Shown piece after piece: positions 5,464-28,074 of a DNA stretch of 32,000 bases. The notes below the pieces were generated by a model. The model searched no databases, was not told the origin of the DNA, and saw only the letters and a program-made list of their open reading frames with translations. The stretch lies in NCBI RefSeq assembly GCF_000406145.1, contig NZ_CM001976.1:2674379-2706378 (forward strand), read 5' to 3'. Each line of letters opens with the position of its first letter. Within the stretch, counting starts at the first letter, position 1. Position numbers and translations under genes: made by a program. The DNA is from Dickeya dadantii NCPPB 898 (lineage in GTDB: Bacteria > Pseudomonadota > Gammaproteobacteria > Enterobacterales > Enterobacteriaceae).

Positions 5464-6732
5464 ATGAAAGTCAGAGAACGATATATTGGACTGGAATGGC
5501 TCCGGTTTCTGCTTGGATGCTATGTCATGGTCTACCACACCGTACATGTCTATCCGCAGCGTGAAAAGATCCTCTTTCTGAACGAACTGACCAGCATGGG
5601 ATTCTTCGCCACCAGTACTTTTTTTGTGTTATCCGGCTTTCTGCTGACGCACGTTTATCTGCGTGACGGCCAGTTGCGGGAACCCGCCCGGCACTTTTTA
5701 GCCAAGCGGTTGTTTAACCTCTACCCGATTCATATCATCGGTCTGGTGTCATCCATCGTCGTGGTCAGCCTGATGCACTGGCTGGCGATTCCGCCGGAAG
5801 GTCAGGTCGCCAGCGCCCGCTTCGTGATTTACGACAGCAACGACCCCAGTGTCGCGCCGGAGACGTTACGCCACTACATGGACAACGCTGAACTGGCTTT
5901 TAACGGCTTGTTGCAATTACTGATGTTGCAGGCGTGGAACCCCTACTTTCTGACCTTCAACGCGCCGTTGTGGTCGGTGTCGACACTGTTCTTCTTCTAT
6001 TTGCTGTTCCCACTGCTGGCGCCGCGGCTGTTGGGCAGTCGTCACCCGCGCCTGTGGCTGATGGCGATGTTCGTGCTGTATTTACTGCCGCCGATATGGG
6101 TGATCTGGCATCAATTATATGGCGCGCCATACACCGGCCTGCTACAACGCAACCCCTTGCTGCGCCTGCCGGAATTTCTGGCCGGGGTGCTGGGCTACGC
6201 CATTTTCCGTCAATACCGCGACGGCACGCTGCCGGCGCTGACCCGTATGCAGCGCAAAGCGCTGGGCGCCTTTATCTGCCTGAGTTTTATCATCGCTACC
6301 TGGTTGTTTACGCATGGCGAACGCTACTGGTATTTCCTGCTGCACAACGGTCTGTTGTTGCCGGCACAGGTAGCGCTGGTGTGCCTGTGCGCTCACTTCC
6401 GCGAACCGGACAGCGAAACGCTGAAAACCTGGGCAACCCGGCTGGGCGCGGCATCGCTGTCGATCTTTGCCCTGCATGTGCCGCTATTTAACCTGTTCCG
6501 TACGCTGGAACAGCTGTTGCGCGGCGACCCGCTACAGTGCTTCAGCGACTGGACGGCCTGTATCGACGCCGCCGGAAGAGTCGATCTGTCCATGACCGGC
6601 TATGGCGTGTTCCTGCTGACCACCGTCGCACTGTGCGTGGTATTGCAGGAACAGGTGGTCATCCGCATGAAACAGGCATTGACCGAACGCTTCCTGGGCC
6701 GCCGTTTCCACCCCTCCCGCAGCGCGGCCTGA
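5464..6732 (+). CDS. Integral-membrane acyltransferase (acyltransferase-3 / OafA-OpgC-like family)
   Basis: 422 aa and polytopic. The N-terminal signature IGLEWLRFLLGCYVMVYH is typical of acyltransferase_3. GGAGG RBS lies 7 nt upstream of the ATG. Confidence 0.7.
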   Translation: MKVRERYIGLEWLRFLLGCYVMVYHTVHVYPQREKILFLNELTSMGFFATSTFFVLSGFLLTHVYLRDGQLREPARHFLAKRLFNLYPIHIIGLVSSIVVVSLMHWLAIPPEGQVASARFVIYDSNDPSVAPETLRHYMDNAELAFNGLLQLLMLQAWNPYFLTFNAPLWSVSTLFFFYLLFPLLAPRLLGSRHPRLWLMAMFVLYLLPPIWVIWHQLYGAPYTGLLQRNPLLRLPEFLAGVLGYAIFRQYRDGTLPALTRMQRKALGAFICLSFIIATWLFTHGERYWYFLLHNGLLLPAQVALVCLCAHFREPDSETLKTWATRLGAASLSIFALHVPLFNLFRTLEQLLRGDPLQCFSDWTACIDAAGRVDLSMTGYGVFLLTTVALCVVLQEQVVIRMKQALTERFLGRRFHPSRSAA

Positions 6733-6736
6733 TGAT

Positions 6737-6780
6737 AACGGCTATCGCGGTGATGTGATCATCGTCACCGTTATAGCCGT
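6737..6780 (+). terminator. Long imperfect hairpin after the acyltransferase gene
   Basis: ACGGCTAT (6738-6745) pairs with ATAGCCGT (6773-6780). An inner GGTGA/TCACC pairing is also present. No T-run. Confidence 0.3.
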
Positions 6781-6953
6781 AAATCATTAATCACACGGTT
6801 TATAACAATTTCCATTCTAATTATGGGACACTTATACCTAGAGGCGCAGCGCGATTCCTGTTAATGTTTGCCTCGCCGGAAAAAACCGGTACATCGATGC
6901 ATCGTCTGAACGGCGTCTTTCACTTTTAGTCACCCACTGTTTTATCTGACATC

Positions 6954-8009
6954 ATGACACATTCCAAACACGCACTTTCGTCGCTGAGTCTGTTTATCGC
7001 CCTCAGCGCCGCAGGCATTTCCACCAGCCATGCGGACACCGTCTGGTTAACCAACGGTGACAAGATCAGCGGCCAGATTACGCTGCTGGACAGCGGTAAA
7101 TTGTTTATCAAAACCGACTATGCCGACACCGTGTCGGTCACCTGGGACAAAGTCAAAACCTTCCAGACCGACCACGGGATGGTGATTCAGGGACAACGCT
7201 ACGAGAAAGGCGTGCTCTACCCGTCCATCAAGGCCTCCGATAGTTCACGCGCCATCGTTGCCCAGCCGGCAAGCGTAGATGGCCAGCAGGTCAGCGCCGG
7301 TCAGGAAACCCTGCCGCTGTCTGATATCAACTCGATGGTGGTACCGCGCCGCTGGGTGGAAGATTTCTCCTGGAAAGGCAATGTCGACGTCAGCCTGGCT
7401 CACAAGAAAAGCTCCACCGAAACCGACAACCGCGATGTCACGCTGAGCACCCGCCTGCGTCACGGCACCTGGCGCCACAATCTGGATGCCAGCTACCACA
7501 TGACCAAAGAAGACAATGTGGAGAGCACCAAAAACGCCGCCGGCGAATACGCGCTGGATAAATTCATCGACGAGCACTGGTTCTGGCAGGGTCGTTATGA
7601 ATACAAACGCGACTGGGTGGAAAACATCAAGATCAACCGCTCCGTCGGTACCGGTCCGGGCTACCAGTTCTGGGATAACGATCTGGGCTCCTTCTCCGTC
7701 ACCACGCTGGTGAACTCCCAGACCTTTATTTATCAGAACAACAGCGAAGACAATTTCTACTCCGGCGGCCTGAAGTGGAACTACGATCGTTTCCTGTTCA
7801 GCAAGCGCACCGAATTGTTCACCGATGGCGAAGTGGGCCGTTCGTTTGACAGCACCACTCCGCTTTACTTCAAAGCTGGCGCCGGTTTGCGCTTCAAGGT
7901 TACCGACTGGTCATCCGTCAGCATGAAGGTGTCCCGCAACCGCACCGAAAGCGTTCAGGGCAACGTCAACGATACCCTGTACTCGCTGGGTCTGGGCGTC
8001 GGCTGGTAA
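6954..8009 (+). CDS. DUF481-family outer-membrane beta-barrel protein (YdiY-like) with N-terminal extension
   Basis: Signal peptide ending SHA|DT. N-terminal DTVWLTNGDKISGQI motif common in DUF481 proteins. Alternating beta-strand pattern and an aromatic C-terminus (LGLGVGW). Confidence 0.7.
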   Translation: MTHSKHALSSLSLFIALSAAGISTSHADTVWLTNGDKISGQITLLDSGKLFIKTDYADTVSVTWDKVKTFQTDHGMVIQGQRYEKGVLYPSIKASDSSRAIVAQPASVDGQQVSAGQETLPLSDINSMVVPRRWVEDFSWKGNVDVSLAHKKSSTETDNRDVTLSTRLRHGTWRHNLDASYHMTKEDNVESTKNAAGEYALDKFIDEHWFWQGRYEYKRDWVENIKINRSVGTGPGYQFWDNDLGSFSVTTLVNSQTFIYQNNSEDNFYSGGLKWNYDRFLFSKRTELFTDGEVGRSFDSTTPLYFKAGAGLRFKVTDWSSVSMKVSRNRTESVQGNVNDTLYSLGLGVGW

Positions 8010-20620: not shown

Positions 20621-21490
20621 TCAGAAGCTGGGGGTTAGCGTCAGCACCACCACACCGCGCGGCGTGACCTCATCCACCCCGCACTGGAATTGTGAGCCGC
20701 CGCCTTCGACCTGCATTTTACGCCCCGGCAACAGCGCCACATCGTAGATGTCGCTCTTGCCGTCGATATCCAGCAGCCAACGACCATTGCTGATACTGGT
20801 AATTCCGGTATCCACCAGCCAGGAAGACGAACTCCCTTCCACCAGCAGAGGCGCATGCAATCCCGCAGGAATAAACTGCGGATCCGCCTTCCACTCACCC
20901 GCATCCTGCAGTTTTCCGGTTTTCAACAGATTACGCGGGATCAGGCAAATGCCGCTGTCGTCGTGACGGCTGACGGGCGCGTCATTCTGCTGCGGCGAAC
21001 CTCTACCGGTTGCCAGCCACGCCAGCGACACACCGGTATCCAGCGCACAGGTGACCACCACATCCCCCGGAAAGAAATCGCGGCGAATCCAGGTGCTGAT
21101 CGTACCGGGCGCGATGCCCAGCAGATCGCCCAGCTCTTTTTGCGTGCTGAAGCCATAGGCATCAAGCATACGACGCAGTACAGCCTTGCCGCCCGATGAC
21201 AGAATCTGCTCATAAAGCGCTTTGCCTTTCAGCGGCGATTTATACGTAAACACATTCGCATTTGCGAACTCCCCGGTGACCAGCCATCCGGCATCCGCTC
21301 CGGTATCAAGCGCGCACTTCAAAATAATATTACCCGGCACATTCCCTCGCTGAACCCAGTTACTGATTGTATTGGTAGGTATCTCAGTCACCTCGCTCAG
21401 TTCCTTCTGAGTCTTTACTCCGTAGCTTGACATGATGCGCTCAAGCACGAAGGCCGCAGACACGGCATTACTATTTGTATTCAAAAACAC
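20621..21490 (-). CDS. cI: Phage CI-type repressor with two tandem CI-repressor HTH domains and a C-terminal beta-rich (S24-like or oligomerisation) domain
   Basis: 289 aa. Residues 15-73 and 104-162 both carry the 186-CI-type HTH pattern (VL.R....YG..TQKEL......TIS.W..R...PG.....CALDTG....WL.TG). The gene is divergent from the early operon. The start is GTG 21490, or possibly TTG 21484 behind GAGG. Confidence 0.8.
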   Translation of the reverse strand: MFLNTNSNAVSAAFVLERIMSSYGVKTQKELSEVTEIPTNTISNWVQRGNVPGNIILKCALDTGADAGWLVTGEFANANVFTYKSPLKGKALYEQILSSGGKAVLRRMLDAYGFSTQKELGDLLGIAPGTISTWIRRDFFPGDVVVTCALDTGVSLAWLATGRGSPQQNDAPVSRHDDSGICLIPRNLLKTGKLQDAGEWKADPQFIPAGLHAPLLVEGSSSSWLVDTGITSISNGRWLLDIDGKSDIYDVALLPGRKMQVEGGGSQFQCGVDEVTPRGVVVLTLTPSF

Positions 21491-21500
21491 CTCACGAGTA

Positions 21501-21530
21501 TTTACATATACACGTTACGTGTTTTATAGT
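21501..21530 (+). promoter_or_regulatory. Candidate early (pR-like) promoter with an operator palindrome in the spacer
   Basis: TTTACA (21501-21506), an 18-nt spacer, then TATAGT (21525-21530). The perfect 13-bp palindrome ACACGTTACGTGT (21510-21522) lies in the spacer. A leftward TATAAA (complement of 21523-21528) and GTTACA (complement of 21545-21550) could be the repressor promoter. Confidence 0.35.
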
Positions 21531-21587: not shown

Positions 21588-22058
21588 ATGTCGGACGAGA
21601 TTTCAATTCTAACGCACATTTCTGAGGAAAATCCTACCGCAGCGAGTTCATCCGCAGTGGCAGAAATCAGCTTTTTGGCTGTCAACCAACGGTTTCATGC
21701 TATACCCGACCGGGCGTTAACTTCTTTCACCGGCTTGCGCAGCGCGGTATATAACGCCGCGTCAGTCCCCATGACGCGGCGTGCGTCCTGCCGCACAAGC
21801 ACGTCATGGATCCAGTCTGCCCACATCGTGCCTCAGCGCAATTTTGCAAATGCAAAAACGGCATTCATCACTGCTACGACGACAGCCGTTTTTTCCAGCC
21901 TCATCACCGCCCGAGCGCCATCGGCGCAGTACAGCCGTTCAACCGTTGTGAATGGCGGCAATGATTTTAACACTAAGTTCGGAAATTCGAATTCAGCGGA
22001 TATTTCGCGTCGGTTGCCGGAGGCTGACGGCCGCGATGGTAAACGGGCGTCATCATGA
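21588..22058 (+). CDS. Hypothetical first early-operon ORF (doubtful coding assignment)
   Basis: GGGGGAGA RBS lies 9 nt upstream of the ATG, and the stop overlaps the next ATG (ATGA at 22055-22058). However, the 156-aa product is Ser/Thr/Ala-rich and Leu-poor, and the antisense frame looks more protein-like (see findings). Confidence 0.35.
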   Translation: MSDEISILTHISEENPTAASSSAVAEISFLAVNQRFHAIPDRALTSFTGLRSAVYNAASVPMTRRASCRTSTSWIQSAHIVPQRNFANAKTAFITATTTAVFSSLITARAPSAQYSRSTVVNGGNDFNTKFGNSNSADISRRLPEADGRDGKRASS

Positions 22059-22603
22059 AGCCCCATTATGCCTTTACCGCCGAACATCTGCAGACCTTGC
22101 CGCCCAATTTGCGGGCGCTGATCGGAAAACACTTCGCGGATTCGCGCTGGGCGCAGACGTGCGTTTTTTATCGGCGGCTCTCCGAACGCTATCGCCGCAC
22201 GCTGTGTTTTCATGCCGCGCTGCACCACCGCTGGTGTGTCTATCAACTGGAAGAGATGGATGAAATGGCGCGCGAAAGAATCGTCAGCGCGCTGAATGAA
22301 CTGCGTAGCGCATTCGACTTGCCGGAAAAACAGGAGCCAGGCCAGCTCCTGTACTCGGTTCGGGTCCTCACCCTCAGCGAACGACGCACGCTGTTTTTCC
22401 ATGCCGGGCTCACGACCCAGGAATTCGATCAACCTTTGCGGCGCATTGATGAGTCGGATTGCCAGTGGGCGAAAGCGCTTAACCGCGCCCTCGGCGAGTT
22501 GCATAGCCTGTTTGCCGAGGCGCCGGACATTCTGACCAGCATCAGACCTGAACACTATTTCAACGCCGAACACTATTTCAGCGCCGAACACCATTCGCGT
22601 TGA
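22055..22603 (+). CDS. Hypothetical phage early protein with internal duplication
   Basis: 182 aa with high third-position GC and CTG-rich codon usage typical of this genome. Same orientation as gpA. Internal repeat LSERYRRTLCFHAAL / LSERRTLFFHAGL. Confidence 0.7.
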   Translation: MKPHYAFTAEHLQTLPPNLRALIGKHFADSRWAQTCVFYRRLSERYRRTLCFHAALHHRWCVYQLEEMDEMARERIVSALNELRSAFDLPEKQEPGQLLYSVRVLTLSERRTLFFHAGLTTQEFDQPLRRIDESDCQWAKALNRALGELHSLFAEAPDILTSIRPEHYFNAEHYFSAEHHSR

Positions 22604-22722
22604 CGACAGTTTCGCTGACGGCAGATCGCGTCAGTAAAAACGACATCGTTAACTCAACCGCCAGCACACAGGCCACCGTTCAGGATGGTCCGCCTTGTTG
22701 CTGCTTAACATCAGGAAATTGT

Positions 22723-22938
22723 ATGAAAAATACACAAACGAATCACAAGACGTCGTCCCTTACCAGGCGGCATATCCCAAATGACGTCTGGCGTACCGAC
22801 CTTGCTCATCGCTATAGCGAGCATCTGGAGCAGCTGGCGCAACACGCCCGGCAGGAACAGCTGTCCGCTCAGGAACTGGTGGCGTTGCTACAACAGGAAG
22901 CCGAAAACATTCGGCACCAGATTTGGGAGGCGCACTAA
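22723..22938 (+). CDS. Hypothetical small phage protein (predicted helical/coiled)
   Basis: The ATG at 22723 follows an AGGA RBS. The 71-aa product ends in TAATG, overlapping the next start. The tracked start at 22600 is an unsupported upstream extension. Confidence 0.55.
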   Translation: MKNTQTNHKTSSLTRRHIPNDVWRTDLAHRYSEHLEQLAQHARQEQLSAQELVALLQQEAENIRHQIWEAH

Positions 22939-23162
22939 TGGCAGACAGTATGGACATTTCCCAGGAGCAGCAAGCCATGCTGCTGGATGCGCAAATCGCC
23001 CATGCCCGCAAAGCCCCGGTCGCTCACACCGCCCATGTCTGCGAGGACTGTGATGCGCCGATTCCCGAAGCCCGCCGTCAGGCGATCCCCGGGGTGACGT
23101 GCTGCGTGGCGTGCCAGGAAATTCGCGAACAGAAACAACGTCACTACCGTTCACCGTCCTGA
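22938..23162 (+). CDS. TraR/DksA-family C4 zinc-finger protein (P2 orf82-like)
   Basis: CEDCDAPIPEARRQAIPGVTCCVACQ is a C-x2-C...C-x2-C motif typical of phage TraR-like proteins located just before gpA. GGGAGG RBS. Confidence 0.85.
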   Translation: MADSMDISQEQQAMLLDAQIAHARKAPVAHTAHVCEDCDAPIPEARRQAIPGVTCCVACQEIREQKQRHYRSPS

Positions 23163-23258
23163 GCATGTTTTCACTGACTGACAAGCCAGGGTCGATCTGC
23201 GGCTATTCCCGCCGGTAATCCGGCAAACATTCATCGGGTAGGTAAACGCTGGCTGGTT

Positions 23259-25385
23259 ATGACGTCTGACGAAACCGAAAAAAACGCCGACAACCGGGGC
23301 GACCGCTGGGCATACCCGTGGAATGCGCCCCGCCCCGCCATACTGCCCGAATCCAGCGCATTGTCTGCGGACACCTTGCAGCAGGGACAGGCGGTACTGT
23401 ATCTGCTGGCGTTGCTGCCGCGTTTTCTGGCCGGCCATTTCCGCCGTCGCTTCGATTATCTGAAGCAGCATCAGGGGCTGGCCGCCGCGTTCAGCTACCT
23501 GTTATCGGTGGTTCAGCGGCGGCTCTGGCCCCGAATCGACGCCGTCAACGCCCGCTACCGGATGAACACGGCCTTATCTTCACGCTTCATCAGCGAAGCG
23601 GAGCAGTATCACCAGTTGCCGGATATGCCGGACAAGGTGCTGCGCGCGTTCGCCGGCCGCATCGCCGCCCACATGAACGATGCCTACCATGCCCACTGCG
23701 AACGCTACCTGCAGGAATGTCCCGGCGATGCTCAGGCGACGTTATTCAACGATGAAACACAAGCGCGCATCTATGGTCGGTTAGCGACACTGGCGCAAGC
23801 CCTGAACGTGACGCCCGCCCACTGGCATCGCCATCAGAACGGAACGCTCACGCTGGAACAGGCGTGCGCCGGCATTATGCGGCTGGTCAACCCCCGCTGG
23901 TGGGAACGCCAGTTGAAGATTCAGCGAGCCCGCTGGCGCGAGGCATTGTGGATTGCCGGCGGCGAGGTGAGCCGGGCCGCGTCTCCCTTTCTCAGCCGCC
24001 AGGCATTGCAGGATATCCGCTACCGCCGTCTGGCGACGCTGGATTTTCTGAAAAGTCGCGAGCTGGAGAATACCCGCAACGGCGAGCGGGTCGATTTGAT
24101 CGATAAAGTCATGGGCAGTATCGCCAACCCGGAAATTCGCCGAATGGAACTGATGACCATGCTGGCGGGTATTGAGCGTTACGCGACCGCACACCACCAC
24201 ATCGGTATGCTGGTGACATTCACCGCTCCCGGCCACTACCATCCCACCCGTACTCGCGGTCACGAGCGAGTATTGGTCAACACCGGATGGATGCCGGACT
24301 GCCCTTCGCCCAAAATGACCCAGCATTATCTGGTCAAGCTATGGGGAAAAATCCGTACCGCGCTCAAAGACCGTAAACTGCACATCTACGGATTACGGGT
24401 CGTGGAACCCCATCACGACGGCACGCCGCACTGGCACATAATGCTGTATTGCGAACGCGCACAGCGTCAGGCGATCGTCGAGATCCTGCGTCGCTATGCC
24501 CAGCCTGGTGAAAGCGAGCGCACGGTGGCGCATAACCGCCGGTTTGACTGCAAGCACATCAACAAGGGCGGCGCGGCGGCGTACGTCGCCAAATACATCG
24601 CCAAAAATATCGATGGCTATGCGCTCGACGGTGAAGCAGACCACGAAACCGGAAAGCCGCTAAAAGAGATGGCCGCCGCCGCCTCGGCCTGGGCCTCGCT
24701 CTGGCGCATTCCGCAATTCCATTTCATCGGGTTGCCCACGATTGGCGCGTACCGCGAATGCCGTCGAATTCGCAGCCGGTCATTGCAGGACGAACTGGGC
24801 GAACAGGCCGAAGTGGTGAGATTTGCGGCGGATCGCGGCGACTTCGCGGCCTATATCGAAGCGCAGGGCGGCGCGAATGTCGCCAGGCAACGCCAGTCGG
24901 TTCGTGTCGCCAGAGCCGCCAGCGAACGGCTGAACGCCTACGATGAAACTATCGTACGCACCATCGGTATTTTTTCCGCCCAGCGCGGTCGCGAGCGTGT
25001 CTTCACCACCCGGCTGGACGAATGGCAAATCGTGGCCAAACACCACGCCGGCGGCGATGTTGCCAACGGCCGTCGCCCGGCTCTGCCTTGGAGTTCTGTC
25101 AATAACTGTGGGGGCGCGTTTTCGTCCGACGCGCTCCCTTACCCATTTCGCGATATTCCTCGCGTTCCTTCAGCGCGGCTAACCTATTTTCAGCGCGATC
25201 GACTGGCGTCGTTGCGCCCCCGCCTGAGCCAGCAAGGTATTGATATCTCACGCTGGGAACGGGAGGCGTTGGTGCGCGGCGCCAGCGTGAAAATTGACGG
25301 CCAACTGATTGATGAATTTAGGAATAAAGCTATATCCGCCGTTGATGAAAAGCGCATCATGGGCAAACAGGTCCTGCACTTATGA
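23259..25385 (+). CDS. gpA: P2 gpA-family replication initiation endonuclease (rolling-circle HUH nuclease)
   Basis: 708 aa with the HUH motif EPHHDGTPHWHIMLY and the catalytic tyrosine pair AAAYVAKYIAKNIDGYALD, matching P2 gpA as recalled. Confidence 0.92.
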   Translation: MTSDETEKNADNRGDRWAYPWNAPRPAILPESSALSADTLQQGQAVLYLLALLPRFLAGHFRRRFDYLKQHQGLAAAFSYLLSVVQRRLWPRIDAVNARYRMNTALSSRFISEAEQYHQLPDMPDKVLRAFAGRIAAHMNDAYHAHCERYLQECPGDAQATLFNDETQARIYGRLATLAQALNVTPAHWHRHQNGTLTLEQACAGIMRLVNPRWWERQLKIQRARWREALWIAGGEVSRAASPFLSRQALQDIRYRRLATLDFLKSRELENTRNGERVDLIDKVMGSIANPEIRRMELMTMLAGIERYATAHHHIGMLVTFTAPGHYHPTRTRGHERVLVNTGWMPDCPSPKMTQHYLVKLWGKIRTALKDRKLHIYGLRVVEPHHDGTPHWHIMLYCERAQRQAIVEILRRYAQPGESERTVAHNRRFDCKHINKGGAAAYVAKYIAKNIDGYALDGEADHETGKPLKEMAAAASAWASLWRIPQFHFIGLPTIGAYRECRRIRSRSLQDELGEQAEVVRFAADRGDFAAYIEAQGGANVARQRQSVRVARAASERLNAYDETIVRTIGIFSAQRGRERVFTTRLDEWQIVAKHHAGGDVANGRRPALPWSSVNNCGGAFSSDALPYPFRDIPRVPSARLTYFQRDRLASLRPRLSQQGIDISRWEREALVRGASVKIDGQLIDEFRNKAISAVDEKRIMGKQVLHL

Positions 25386-25386
25386 G

Positions 25387-25429
25387 TTGACGAATATTAC
25401 TGAATAAAGTACTGTATATAAATACAGTC
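25387..25429 (+). promoter_or_regulatory. SOS-regulated promoter: TTGACG -35, TACTGT -10 overlapped by a LexA box
   Basis: TACTGTATATAAATACAGTC (25410-25429) has a CTG-N10-CAG core and matches TACTG(TA)5CAGTA at 18 of 20 positions by my count. TTGACG (25387-25392) lies 17 nt upstream of TACTGT. Confidence 0.8.
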
Positions 25430-25448
25430 TCACAATGGAAGAGGTACC

Positions 25449-25670
25449 GTGGAACAGACTGAAAACAGAGAGCTGACCTTGTCAAGGATTCGATTAATTG
25501 CCGATATATCATTGATATCACAATGCAATCCTGAAGAAATGAAAATCGCCATGTCGTTGATCGCCGACTTATCTCACGGCGAACTCCCGGACAGTGATTA
25601 TCAACAGTTTCTGAAAAACAGCAGTGATGGACAGCAGCTTAAAGCATGGTTCGAACAACAAATGTTGTAA
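25449..25670 (+). CDS. Small LexA-controlled ORF, candidate Tum-like antirepressor
   Basis: GAGG (25441-25444) precedes GTG at 25449. The ORF is 73 aa, AT-rich and acidic, with an internal repeat LIADIS / LIADLS. It sits immediately downstream of the SOS box and after gpA, as tum does in phage 186. Confidence 0.5.
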   Translation: MEQTENRELTLSRIRLIADISLISQCNPEEMKIAMSLIADLSHGELPDSDYQQFLKNSSDGQQLKAWFEQQML

Positions 25671-26243
25671 GGGATTTCGATGGATAATAATGACCGACGT
25701 GAAATTCCCTGGCCGATAGCCAGAGGCACGTGCAAATTAATGGATTTTCTCTGTGGCTAACACGCCCGACTAATACGCAGCAAAATTTTTTTCGTATCCA
25801 GACCGTTCAATAAAAAGGTCTGACTGGCCAAAGCCGGTATATACATTTTGGTATAAATTTTAATTCTGACTCAGTGCAAACCTGTTCGTTGGTCATGTTT
25901 TTTCTTTAACACAGCAGTACGGAATTAGGGTATTCCCATGTAAAAACGTCTGGTAGTGATATTACCCCCGGCCTTCCCGGTACCTTTAACGTACAATATC
26001 CCCTGCCAGCAAGGATCGGCAGGGGACATAATAAGCGGGCACCCTAAAAGAACCATAATAAGCCGCGCGAACAATAAACAAGGGACATGCTAACCAGACA
26101 CCCCTGACACCATTTTCCGCCTGTTGTTGTGTCATCCGTCCAACGCCTTTCCCGCATTGCGACCGCTATCGTTCCTCTGGAGGATAAAGGACCCGAGATA
26201 ACCCGTTTTACTCGATCTTTTTATCTGAACTTAAAGGTATCAC

Positions 26244-26447
26244 ATGAAAGTTTACGCCCATCAGGACGACACCCTGGACGCGCTCTGTTACCGCTACTAC
26301 GGCCGCAAGCAAGGCGTGGTGGAAACGGTTATGCTGTCCAACCACGGGCTTGCGGACCTTGGCCCGATTCTGCCGCACGGCACCGCCGTCACCCTGCCCG
26401 ATATGAATACTTCCGGCTCACAGGAAAGCGTCAATATCTGGGAATAA
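26244..26447 (+). CDS. gpX: P2 tail protein X (LysM-like)
   Basis: 67 aa, the same length as P2 gpX. MKVYAHQDDTLDALCYRYYGR...LP resembles gpX as recalled. Confidence 0.88.
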   Translation: MKVYAHQDDTLDALCYRYYGRKQGVVETVMLSNHGLADLGPILPHGTAVTLPDMNTSGSQESVNIWE

Positions 26448-27312: not shown

Positions 27313-28074
27313 TTGGATAACAGCCGAAGTTTGCCACGTAATATACGAAAGGAATTACTCCATTTTAAACATTTTGGTAACAATGAAGGATTTCTTTATT
27401 ACCCAAAAATCATGGAAGATATTCGCCCTTCTCTGCCTGAAAACGCCATCTCCCATTGCGGCGGCAATGGTGAAAAGTTCAGAAAGTTGCTTACTCTGTT
27501 CGGCGGTCATTTGGGCGACCCGTATAGCCCGACCGCCGTTCCCGGCGCGTCACCGCAGCTCACCAGTATTTTCTCTTCTTACGGATTGCTGACGGCCAGA
27601 GCGGATTCGCCAACGCCGGTGTTTACCCAGCCCGACTTTCTGCTGCTGTATTGCCGGTGTGAAACGTCCGTCTTCAAAATACTGGTTGGCATCGCCAGCC
27701 TTCGTCATGTTATTACGCATATGGACCGGCAAACCCGCATCGAATTATGCCTGCCGCAGTATACGCTGCGCCCCGGCGCCATCAGCCAGGAGCAAACGCC
27801 GTTCAGTCTCCTCAGCGCCGACCGCGACCCCTTTTTGACCTGTACGCCTGACCTGGCGTATCCCCTGACCTCGCCCGCCAGATATGCGTTGCTGAAGTTC
27901 GACCCGCTGCTGAAAAACAGCATGCAATGGCTCAATCTGAAACGGGGCGATCTGCTCATTATCGACAGCCGTCGCAGTACCCACACCTGTGTGCCATTTA
28001 CCCCGTTTTTCCGCCAGGATTCCCCTTACCTGGCGCACATGTTCATCAACAAACCGAACCCGACACAACACTGA
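27313..28074 (+). CDS. Orphan protein in an AT-rich island; C-terminal half resembles TauD/TfdA / clavaminate-synthase-like Fe(II)/2OG oxygenases
   Basis: TTG start behind GGGA; an alternative ATG is at 27412. Motifs QPDFLLLYCRCE (aa 106-117), DPFL, and GDLLIIDSRRSTHTCVPF (aa 212-229) resemble the CAS-like pattern RPDYL.L.C ... GD.L..DN.R..H.R.PF. The GC content is visibly lower than in the flanking tail genes. Confidence 0.6.
   Translation: MDNSRSLPRNIRKELLHFKHFGNNEGFLYYPKIMEDIRPSLPENAISHCGGNGEKFRKLLTLFGGHLGDPYSPTAVPGASPQLTSIFSSYGLLTARADSPTPVFTQPDFLLLYCRCETSVFKILVGIASLRHVITHMDRQTRIELCLPQYTLRPGAISQEQTPFSLLSADRDPFLTCTPDLAYPLTSPARYALLKFDPLLKNSMQWLNLKRGDLLIIDSRRSTHTCVPFTPFFRQDSPYLAHMFINKPNPTQH

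Follow-up and report, generated by a model that had tools for sequence, protein, structure and literature searches.

A predicted TumA-type antirepressor gene behind a LexA box as the likely SOS input of a headless, P2/186-derived cluster of the dickeyocin P2D1 type

Coliphage 186 needs Tum because the type of CI repressor that it carries cannot respond to RecA. Tum combines an antirepressor with a DinI-like half in one fused protein (PMC3121763), and for phage PSP3 the same source relays, as a personal communication via Bunny et al. 2002, that the upstream one of the split genes carries the antirepressor activity. In another P2-like phage, DuoHS, the dependence of induction on Tum and LexA has been shown genetically. 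Among phage-derived bacteriocins, the pyocins of P. aeruginosa are controlled positively by PrtN and negatively by PrtR, with LexA as gatekeeper (PMC12297226), and for the xenorhabdicin loci a CI phage repressor, DinI and OgrK are described as conserved beside P2-like tail genes, as a gene list without a mechanism. For the tailocin of interest here, dickeyocin P2D1, the inducing agents described are mitomycin C, ciprofloxacin, norfloxacin and hydrogen peroxide (PMC12297226), and in 2025 its regulatory proteins and mechanisms were said to "remain to be elucidated" (PMC12297226). Our search of the P2D1 literature found no report of a LexA or repressor test in P2D1 control, the papers searched other than that of 2025 make no mention of LexA, and a literature search by locus tags and protein accession found no paper that mentions the TumA-type gene which we describe below.

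The DNA that we analysed, referred to as the window, is a stretch of 32,000 nucleotides from Dickeya dadantii NCPPB 898 (contig NZ_CM001976.1). Compared with D. dadantii 3937 (CP002038.1, 2,731,902-2,744,123) it shows 98.6% identity over 12.2 kb, and this interval of CP002038.1 falls within the region, 2,723,487-2,757,061, that has been shown as the P2D1 cluster of strain 3937 (PMC10719855). Tail genes X, R, V, W, J and I are present in the cluster, which occupies the locus of P2D1 in strain 3937 and in which neither an integrase nor head genes were found; P2-like tail genes lacking head genes at this locus are what we take to define a P2D1-type cluster. In the 3937 counterpart of the site analysed here the promoter region is identical, and the TumA-type protein differs by one residue. 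We think it likely that this site is the SOS input of a 186-type switch which has been kept in a headless P2/186-derived tailocin cluster of the dickeyocin P2D1 type, and that its 73-aa gene is probably what triggers the dickeyocin. The argument proceeds from sequence anatomy, homology, conservation and genomic pairing, and from these we infer every step of binding and induction. The site consists of the following features:

25387..25392, plus strand: -35 hexamer TTGACG of a p95-like SOS promoter, by direct reading; invariant in the Dickeya, Musicola and L021/L022 clusters.
25410..25415, plus strand: -10 hexamer TACTGT, after a 17-nt spacer from the -35; identical with the first 6 nt of the LexA box.
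25410..25429, no strand assigned: LexA (SOS) box TACTGTATATAAATACAGTC, with 2 mismatches to the consensus TACTGTATATATATACAGTA.
25441..25444, plus strand: Shine-Dalgarno sequence GAGG, 4 nt ahead of the GTG; the block GAAGAGGTACCGTG is conserved.
25449..25670, plus strand: TumA-type antirepressor gene (predicted function), 73 aa, GTG start, acidic, predicted all-helical, matching phrog_1993.

The gene A (gpA) stop codon, by direct reading, is at 25383-25385, and the SOS promoter begins just 2 nt past it. The LexA box overlaps the -10 of TTGACG-17-TACTGT, as it does at p95 of phage 186, and TACTGT is itself the -10 annotated for p95 in the 186 record. From the end of the box to the GTG the distance is 19 nt. 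All of the coordinates and sequences that a first-pass annotation had given for the promoter, the box, GAGG, GTG and the 73-aa frame were confirmed when we read the site again, and its description of the box as near-consensus, matching at 18 of 20 positions, agrees with our count of mismatches. In the whole window the box at 25410-25429 is the one LexA site with at most 3 mismatches, and none of 100 shuffled windows yielded any; the core CTGT-N8-ACAG likewise occurs a single time, at the LexA box, where chance would give 0.30 occurrences per window. A generic sigma-70 scan did not call the promoter at 25387-25415, because TACTGT fits TATAAT at only 3 of 6 positions.

What does the gene behind this promoter encode? 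The frame, which ends with its stop at 25670, has a GC content of 41.9% as against 60.5% for gpA, and its product has a computed pI of 4.45. In the first-pass annotation it was called an orphan that might represent a new antirepressor family, and neither description survives comparison with the phage protein families in PHROGs. The 73-aa ORF matches phrog_1993 with an E value of 1.6e-27 over profile positions 1-63 of 64, that is, over essentially the full profile, and the same profile is matched by TumA of phage PSP3 (2.7e-32), by the Yersinia phage protein gp14 (5.3e-26) and by residues 1-61 of 186 Tum (1e-22). Against phage genomes, tblastn matched a protein annotated as hypothetical in Yersinia phage vB_YenM_31.17 and, less strongly, the TumA of Salmonella phage PSP3; by BLASTP the ORF aligns to PSP3 TumA at 3e-12, with 40% identity over 43 residues. 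Direct pairwise BLASTP between the ORF and 186 Tum gave no match, so that the two are linked through profiles, with PSP3 TumA as the intermediate. At the profile level, hhalign sets the Pectobacteriaceae/Yersinia alignment against 186 Tum in an ungapped match, residues 6-52 to residues 6-52, with an E value of 1.4e-4. A multiple alignment shows an invariant core of I17, C26, A34, L37 and I38. The internal repeat LIADIS/LIADLS to which the first-pass annotation had drawn attention is real and is kept across the family, as a twofold hIA(D/E)h motif that reads LIADIS/LIADLS in Dickeya, FIAEVS/LIADLA in PSP3 TumA and MIARLT/LIAEIA in 186 Tum.

Thus what had been put forward as an analogy to 186 tum, in position and in control logic, holds for the position, for the LexA-box promoter and for the pairing with a 186-type CI, and it goes beyond mere analogy, since homology is now found through phrog_1993 and hhalign. 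Of the HHpred and structural comparison that had been suggested, the profile part gave the hhalign result above, and the structural part gave less: an AlphaFold2 model built with 23 sequences predicts four helices at low confidence (pLDDT 63, pTM 0.35), and a search for a related solved structure for the family found none. The family is small: a search of 1.84 billion proteins yields 41 representatives with E <= 1e-3, mostly of 58-74 aa. At the nucleotide level, neither blastn of the region against a phage collection nor megablast against E. coli genomes returned anything.

These results bear directly on the view that the ORF is the first member of an antirepressor family with no relation to Tum, or else is a DinI-like RecA modulator. 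The negative pairwise BLASTP against 186 Tum would agree with it, as would the family databases: Pfam gives the ORF a sub-threshold EH-domain only (E 0.11), which we take as noise, NCBIfam gives no match, phrog_1993 itself bears the label "unknown function", and every database copy of the protein is named hypothetical protein. Against this stand the full-length phrog_1993 match common to PSP3 TumA and the 186 Tum N-terminus, the colinear hhalign to 186 Tum, and the lack of any DinI part, as Pfam finds no DinI domain in the ORF and tblastn with PSP3 TumB is empty both in the window and at every Pectobacteriaceae, Yersinia and Serratia locus, so that no DinI-like gene follows downstream. We therefore regard a new family or a DinI-like modulator as very improbable. 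Because of the phrog_1993, TumA BLASTP and hhalign matches, together with the missing DinI part, we classify the 73-aa ORF, from its sequence, as TumA-type: it corresponds to the antirepressor half of Tum and lacks the DinI half.

An antirepressor requires a repressor to act upon, and the presumed target lies upstream, beside the start of the early operon:

20621..21490, minus strand: 186-type CI repressor, presumed target of the TumA-type protein, with a duplicated N-terminal HTH (Pfam).
21501..21530, plus strand: candidate early promoter pR, TTTACA-18-TATAGT, proposed from a pattern scan with 10 of 12 matches.
21510-21522, in the pR spacer: candidate CI operator, palindrome ACACGTTACGTGT, proposed from its inverted repeat.
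23259..25385, plus strand: replication gene A, last gene of the early operon (Pfam Phage_GPA, 2.7e-87).

In Pfam the repressor shows Phage_CI_repr twice (1.8e-46) and Phage_CI_C (3e-20), and its residues 102-281 match the whole 186 CI structure 2FJR at 3.9e-23. The kinship with 186 CI that had been noted at first is borne out by these domains and by the structural match. The window CI has an extra HTH copy that is not in 186 CI, and the TumA-CI interaction could accordingly differ from that of 186. The Pfam scan of the CI found no Peptidase_S24 (autocleavage) domain. Since it lacks this domain it cannot respond to RecA itself, and so it needs an antirepressor.

On these grounds the switch would operate as follows. 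In undamaged cells LexA would sit on 25410-25429 and cover the -10, so that the 73-aa gene is silent. After DNA damage, active RecA would lead to self-cleavage of LexA and the promoter would fire. The TumA-type product would then bind the 186-type CI (20621-21490) and stop it from holding its operators. With CI inactivated, the rightward early promoter beside cI would be freed and the genes that follow pR, namely RepB, DUF2732, a DksA/TraR-like protein and gpA, would be expressed. Finally, the tail operon from gpX would be switched on, either directly or through an Ogr/B-type late activator. A gene for such an activator was not located in the window and would lie outside it, if it exists.

A genome scan for homologues of the SOS gene gave 14 loci, which belong to Dickeya, Brenneria, Pectobacterium, Serratia, Yersinia and Symbiopectobacterium. 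With the reference phages counted, 17 of 18 loci have a CTGT-N8-ACAG box at a distance of 15-30 nt ahead of the homologue, the one exception being an endosymbiont genome, and across loci the arms of the box are fixed while the central N8 is variable. The LexA box is also present in Musicola, in L021/L022 and in D. dadantii 3937. Aligned, the Dickeya, Musicola and L021/L022 loci show no variation in TTGACG, the LexA box, the RBS block or the GTG, and most changes in the coding region are synonymous. A 186-type CI accompanies the homologue in Dickeya, Musicola, L021/L022, S. rubidaea, Symbiopectobacterium and Yersinia; co-occurrence was judged where the flank reaches, and at the Pectobacterium and Brenneria loci the CI lies beyond the flank covered. 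Where the element is a full prophage, as in Pectobacterium, Brenneria and Yersinia, the gene is found between gpA and the portal gene Q, which is the position of tum in 186.

The same comparisons allow us to weigh the idea that the SOS gene is a prophage remnant which no longer controls the tailocin, P2D1 being induced by some other route. The cluster is indeed a decayed prophage, having lost integrase and head genes, and Musicola retains the SOS module even though its tail cluster is truncated after gpI. Against the idea, the 73-aa ORF has a dN/dS of 0.08-0.15 across genera, with dS up to >1, behind a promoter, box and RBS that do not vary. The CI is intact as well, and conserved at 93-98% in other Dickeya. 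Moreover, in the most reduced cluster, that of S. rubidaea, the replication genes are gone, and CI and the LexA-box gene, which are among the few non-structural genes retained, are adjacent to each other ahead of the tail genes. Lastly, with a CI that has no RecA-sensitive domain, induction of the SOS type requires an antirepressor of some kind. Taken together, these points make a relic quite unlikely in our judgement, and favour an SOS input that is still in use.

How would the signal reach the tail genes? The region downstream of the ORF contains the following:

25680..25760, plus strand: 26-aa open frame, probably not a gene (open frame alone).
26128..26145, plus strand: candidate P2-type late-promoter dyad TGT-N12-ACG, ~100 nt upstream of gpX, its sole support being positional conservation.
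26244..26447, plus strand: gpX, first tail gene of the headless cluster (Pfam Phage_tail_X, 1.1e-26), followed by R, V, W, J and I.

The tail assignment is supported by further Pfam matches, to GpR (5.8e-34) and to V spike domains, and neither a portal gene nor any head gene intervenes between the 73-aa ORF and gpX. The open frame at 25680-25760, proposed initially as a possible second gene of the transcript, exists as described, and its coding status is unsupported. It is confined to Dickeya, its stop codon is lost in D. oryzae, its dN/dS of ~0.2-0.5 on few sites speaks for weak constraint, it has no PHROG or Pfam match, and it is overlapped by a hairpin at 25709-25723 whose pairing is preserved by a compensatory change. 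We reject it as a gene. Rfam over 25200-26400 returned nothing credible.

It is conceivable that the LexA-controlled promoter drives the tail genes simply by read-through, the small ORF being a passenger or an accessory. Deletion of the head genes has left the promoter ~800 bp upstream of gpX and on the same strand; a generic scan found no intrinsic terminator between 25670 and 26244, and folding of the RNA from 25665-25850 gives no significant structure (z = -1.6). Read-through would nevertheless have to cross the spacer between the ORF and gpX, which is the least conserved part of the locus and, in D. undicola and D. oryzae, is interrupted by large ERIC-like insertions, and in S. rubidaea a clear intrinsic terminator stands between the LexA-box gene and gpX. 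The strong purifying selection on the ORF is also not what we would expect of a passenger. A further argument comes from the dyad. At the position aligned with 26128-26145, D. undicola, D. oryzae and S. rubidaea have TGT-N12-ACA, and the conservation of this P2-type dyad ahead of gpX suggests a separate late promoter of the Ogr/B type. Exact TGT-N12-ACA has 5 matches in the window, a frequency expected by chance, and the site at 26128-26145, with its one mismatch, is outside those 5. On balance we hold direct read-through to be unlikely, and retain the antirepressor as the more probable way in which DNA damage is communicated to the tail genes.

A more elaborate variant can be imagined, in which the 186 switch has been rewired. 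Its antirepressor would be TumA alone, extended at the C terminus in a lineage-specific way (residues ~46-73), and would have co-evolved with the tandem-HTH CI, a covalent 'dimer' of DNA-binding heads. A single TumA, pseudo-symmetric with its two hIA(D/E)h helices, would neutralise one CI chain, and the retained RepB and gpA would serve, during induction, to amplify the tailocin genes in situ. We offer this as a speculation and consider it doubtful in this full form.

For the simpler 186-type switch, our results provide a concrete three-component model of P2D1 regulation, consisting of the LexA box, the TumA-type antirepressor and the 186-type CI, each with its coordinates. They also fill a gap in annotation, in that the TumA family is without a Pfam or NCBIfam model, its PHROG is labelled as being of unknown function and its Dickeya copies are all called hypothetical. 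More generally, the loci suggest that a 186-type SOS switch can persist when a prophage is domesticated into a bacteriocin, and can do so even where the replication genes have been lost, as in S. rubidaea. The mechanism itself is known and the outcome is expected from phage biology; its use for a Dickeya tailocin is something that has not been described before.

Among the closest described systems is p95-tum of phage 186. In both cases the LexA box starts with, and so overlaps, a TACTGT -10, and the gene stands behind replication gene A and has as its partner a 186-type CI without an autocleavage domain. The start regions match in arrangement: the GTG of tum is 18 nt after the putative box with GGAGG 4 nt upstream of it, and in Dickeya the corresponding figures are 19 nt and GAGG 4 nt upstream. 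The N-terminal ~60 residues of Tum belong to phrog_1993 and have the same two-helix hIA(D/E)h repeat. The proteins differ in what follows, since Tum has 146 aa with a Pfam DinI domain at residues 87-145, whereas the Dickeya protein stops at 73 aa and has a short Pectobacteriaceae-specific extension in place of the DinI part. They differ also in what they serve, as the Dickeya host element, unlike 186, makes tails only.

In its stand-alone form the Dickeya protein resembles PSP3 TumA, and the split tum of Fels-2, which are likewise small acidic proteins equivalent to the antirepressor half of Tum. PSP3 tumA, whose annotation notes a similarity with the 5' end of 186 tum, has a LexA box directly upstream and follows gene A, just as the Dickeya gene does. 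However, PSP3 TumA has 60 aa and an ATG start, and in PSP3 tumA is followed by tumB, a DinI homologue, which has no counterpart in the Dickeya, Pectobacterium, Brenneria, Yersinia or Serratia loci. The principle of a LexA-repressed small antirepressor directed against a repressor that does not cleave itself is shared, beyond the 186 group, by GfoA/GftA of the Gifsy phages, FsoA of Fels-1 and AntC of N15. These proteins target other repressor families and come from lambdoid or N15-type phages, and our family searches with the 73-aa ORF (Pfam, PHROGs, NCBIfam) gave no match annotated as an antirepressor of the GfoA/GftA, FsoA or AntC type. With the pyocins and xenorhabdicin, the Dickeya cluster shares the coupling of a phage-derived bacteriocin to DNA damage. 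In the pyocin system, PrtR is inactivated by RecA-dependent cleavage, with no known antirepressor step.

Conservation across the locus is lowest in the spacer between the gene for the predicted 73-aa TumA-type antirepressor (25449-25670) and the first tail gene, gpX. In the window we mark two features there:

25709-25723, + strand: hairpin CTGGC-cgata-GCCAG, within the 26-aa frame that is probably not a gene
26128-26145, + strand: TGT-N12-ACG dyad, roughly 100 nt before gpX

The D. oryzae stem of the hairpin reads CTGGTT/AACCAG, a C>T change together with a G>A change keeping the pairing, which over three sequences is an anecdotal observation. The dyad resembles the one at Ogr/B-dependent late promoters of P2-like phages. 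In D. undicola, D. oryzae and S. rubidaea the position aligned with it reads TGT-N12-ACA, a motif that in its bare form occurs in the window at chance frequency. In D. undicola and D. oryzae the stretch between the homologue of the 73-aa gene and gpX also contains large insertions that include ERIC-like repeats (containing AGCTTACTCAGGTAAGTGACTCGGGTGAGCGA; about 6400-6900 in locus L005 and about 6400-7050 in locus L006). The window lacks these insertions.

Two further features lie in the tail cluster, one within the window and one downstream of its end:

27313-28074, + strand: 253-aa ORF between gpR and gpV
L023 12359-15865, a Dickeya locus: non-phage block (phytase-like, MFS sugar transporter and Smr genes) inside the tail cluster, downstream of the window's end

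The 253-aa ORF weakly resembles clavaminate synthase/TauD-type Fe(II)/2-oxoglutarate dioxygenases (E 2.8e-12, sub-threshold), and because it is missing from the clusters of Musicola and of the related loci L021/L022, it looks like an inserted cargo gene. The non-phage block is flanked on one side by a tail-fibre gene and on the other by a DNA invertase that is accompanied by alternative fibre segments. Its host assembly, CP110362.1, contains the whole cluster twice (L023/L024, 4,947,891-4,968,502 and 1,945-22,556), near either end of the chromosome record, and one of the copies has a split gpA (467 + 212 aa) and an inverted phytase/MFS/Smr block; the doubling could reflect either an error of assembly or a true duplication.

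Two related genera carry reduced clusters. That of Musicola paradisiaca (L019/L020, 3264-12153) ends after gpI and gives way to genes for a phytase-like protein and an MFS transporter, the fibre, sheath and tube genes being absent from their place. It nevertheless retains CI, gpA and the LexA box, and its 73-aa gene is intact; M. paradisiaca served in the tailocin spot test of the P2D1 methods. Serratia rubidaea (L013, 4667-6609) has a minimal arrangement, devoid of replication genes, in which a CI with tandem HTH domains is followed by about 430 nt of intergenic DNA, a LexA box with a TumA-like gene of 65 aa, a terminator and gpX:

L013 6231-6256: intrinsic terminator, after the 65-aa TumA-like gene and before gpX

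The early region of the window holds the following:

21501-21530, + strand: candidate early promoter TTTACA-18-TATAGT, adjoining the cI start
21510-21522: palindrome ACACGTTACGTGT, in the spacer of that promoter
21588-22058, + strand: putative 156-aa ORF, occupying the apl/cox position
22055-25385, + strand: replication genes RepB and gpA, apparently intact

The putative 156-aa ORF matches no family in Pfam, NCBIfam or elsewhere, and is called by gene callers in Dickeya and not in Musicola or L021/L022. RepB is 182 aa long and gpA 708 aa, with 81-85% identity across Dickeya species for the latter. That both are retained, apparently intact, in a headless tailocin cluster raises the possibility that the cluster could be amplified in situ during tailocin induction.

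The palindrome is a possible operator for CI (20621-21490, - strand). This repressor contains two tandem Phage_CI_repr HTH domains (residues about 15-80 and 102-166), with the 186-type C-terminal domain behind both, an architecture whose tandem HTH is found also in Musicola, S. rubidaea and Symbiopectobacterium. The whole of 186 CI corresponds to residues 102-281 alone of the window's CI.
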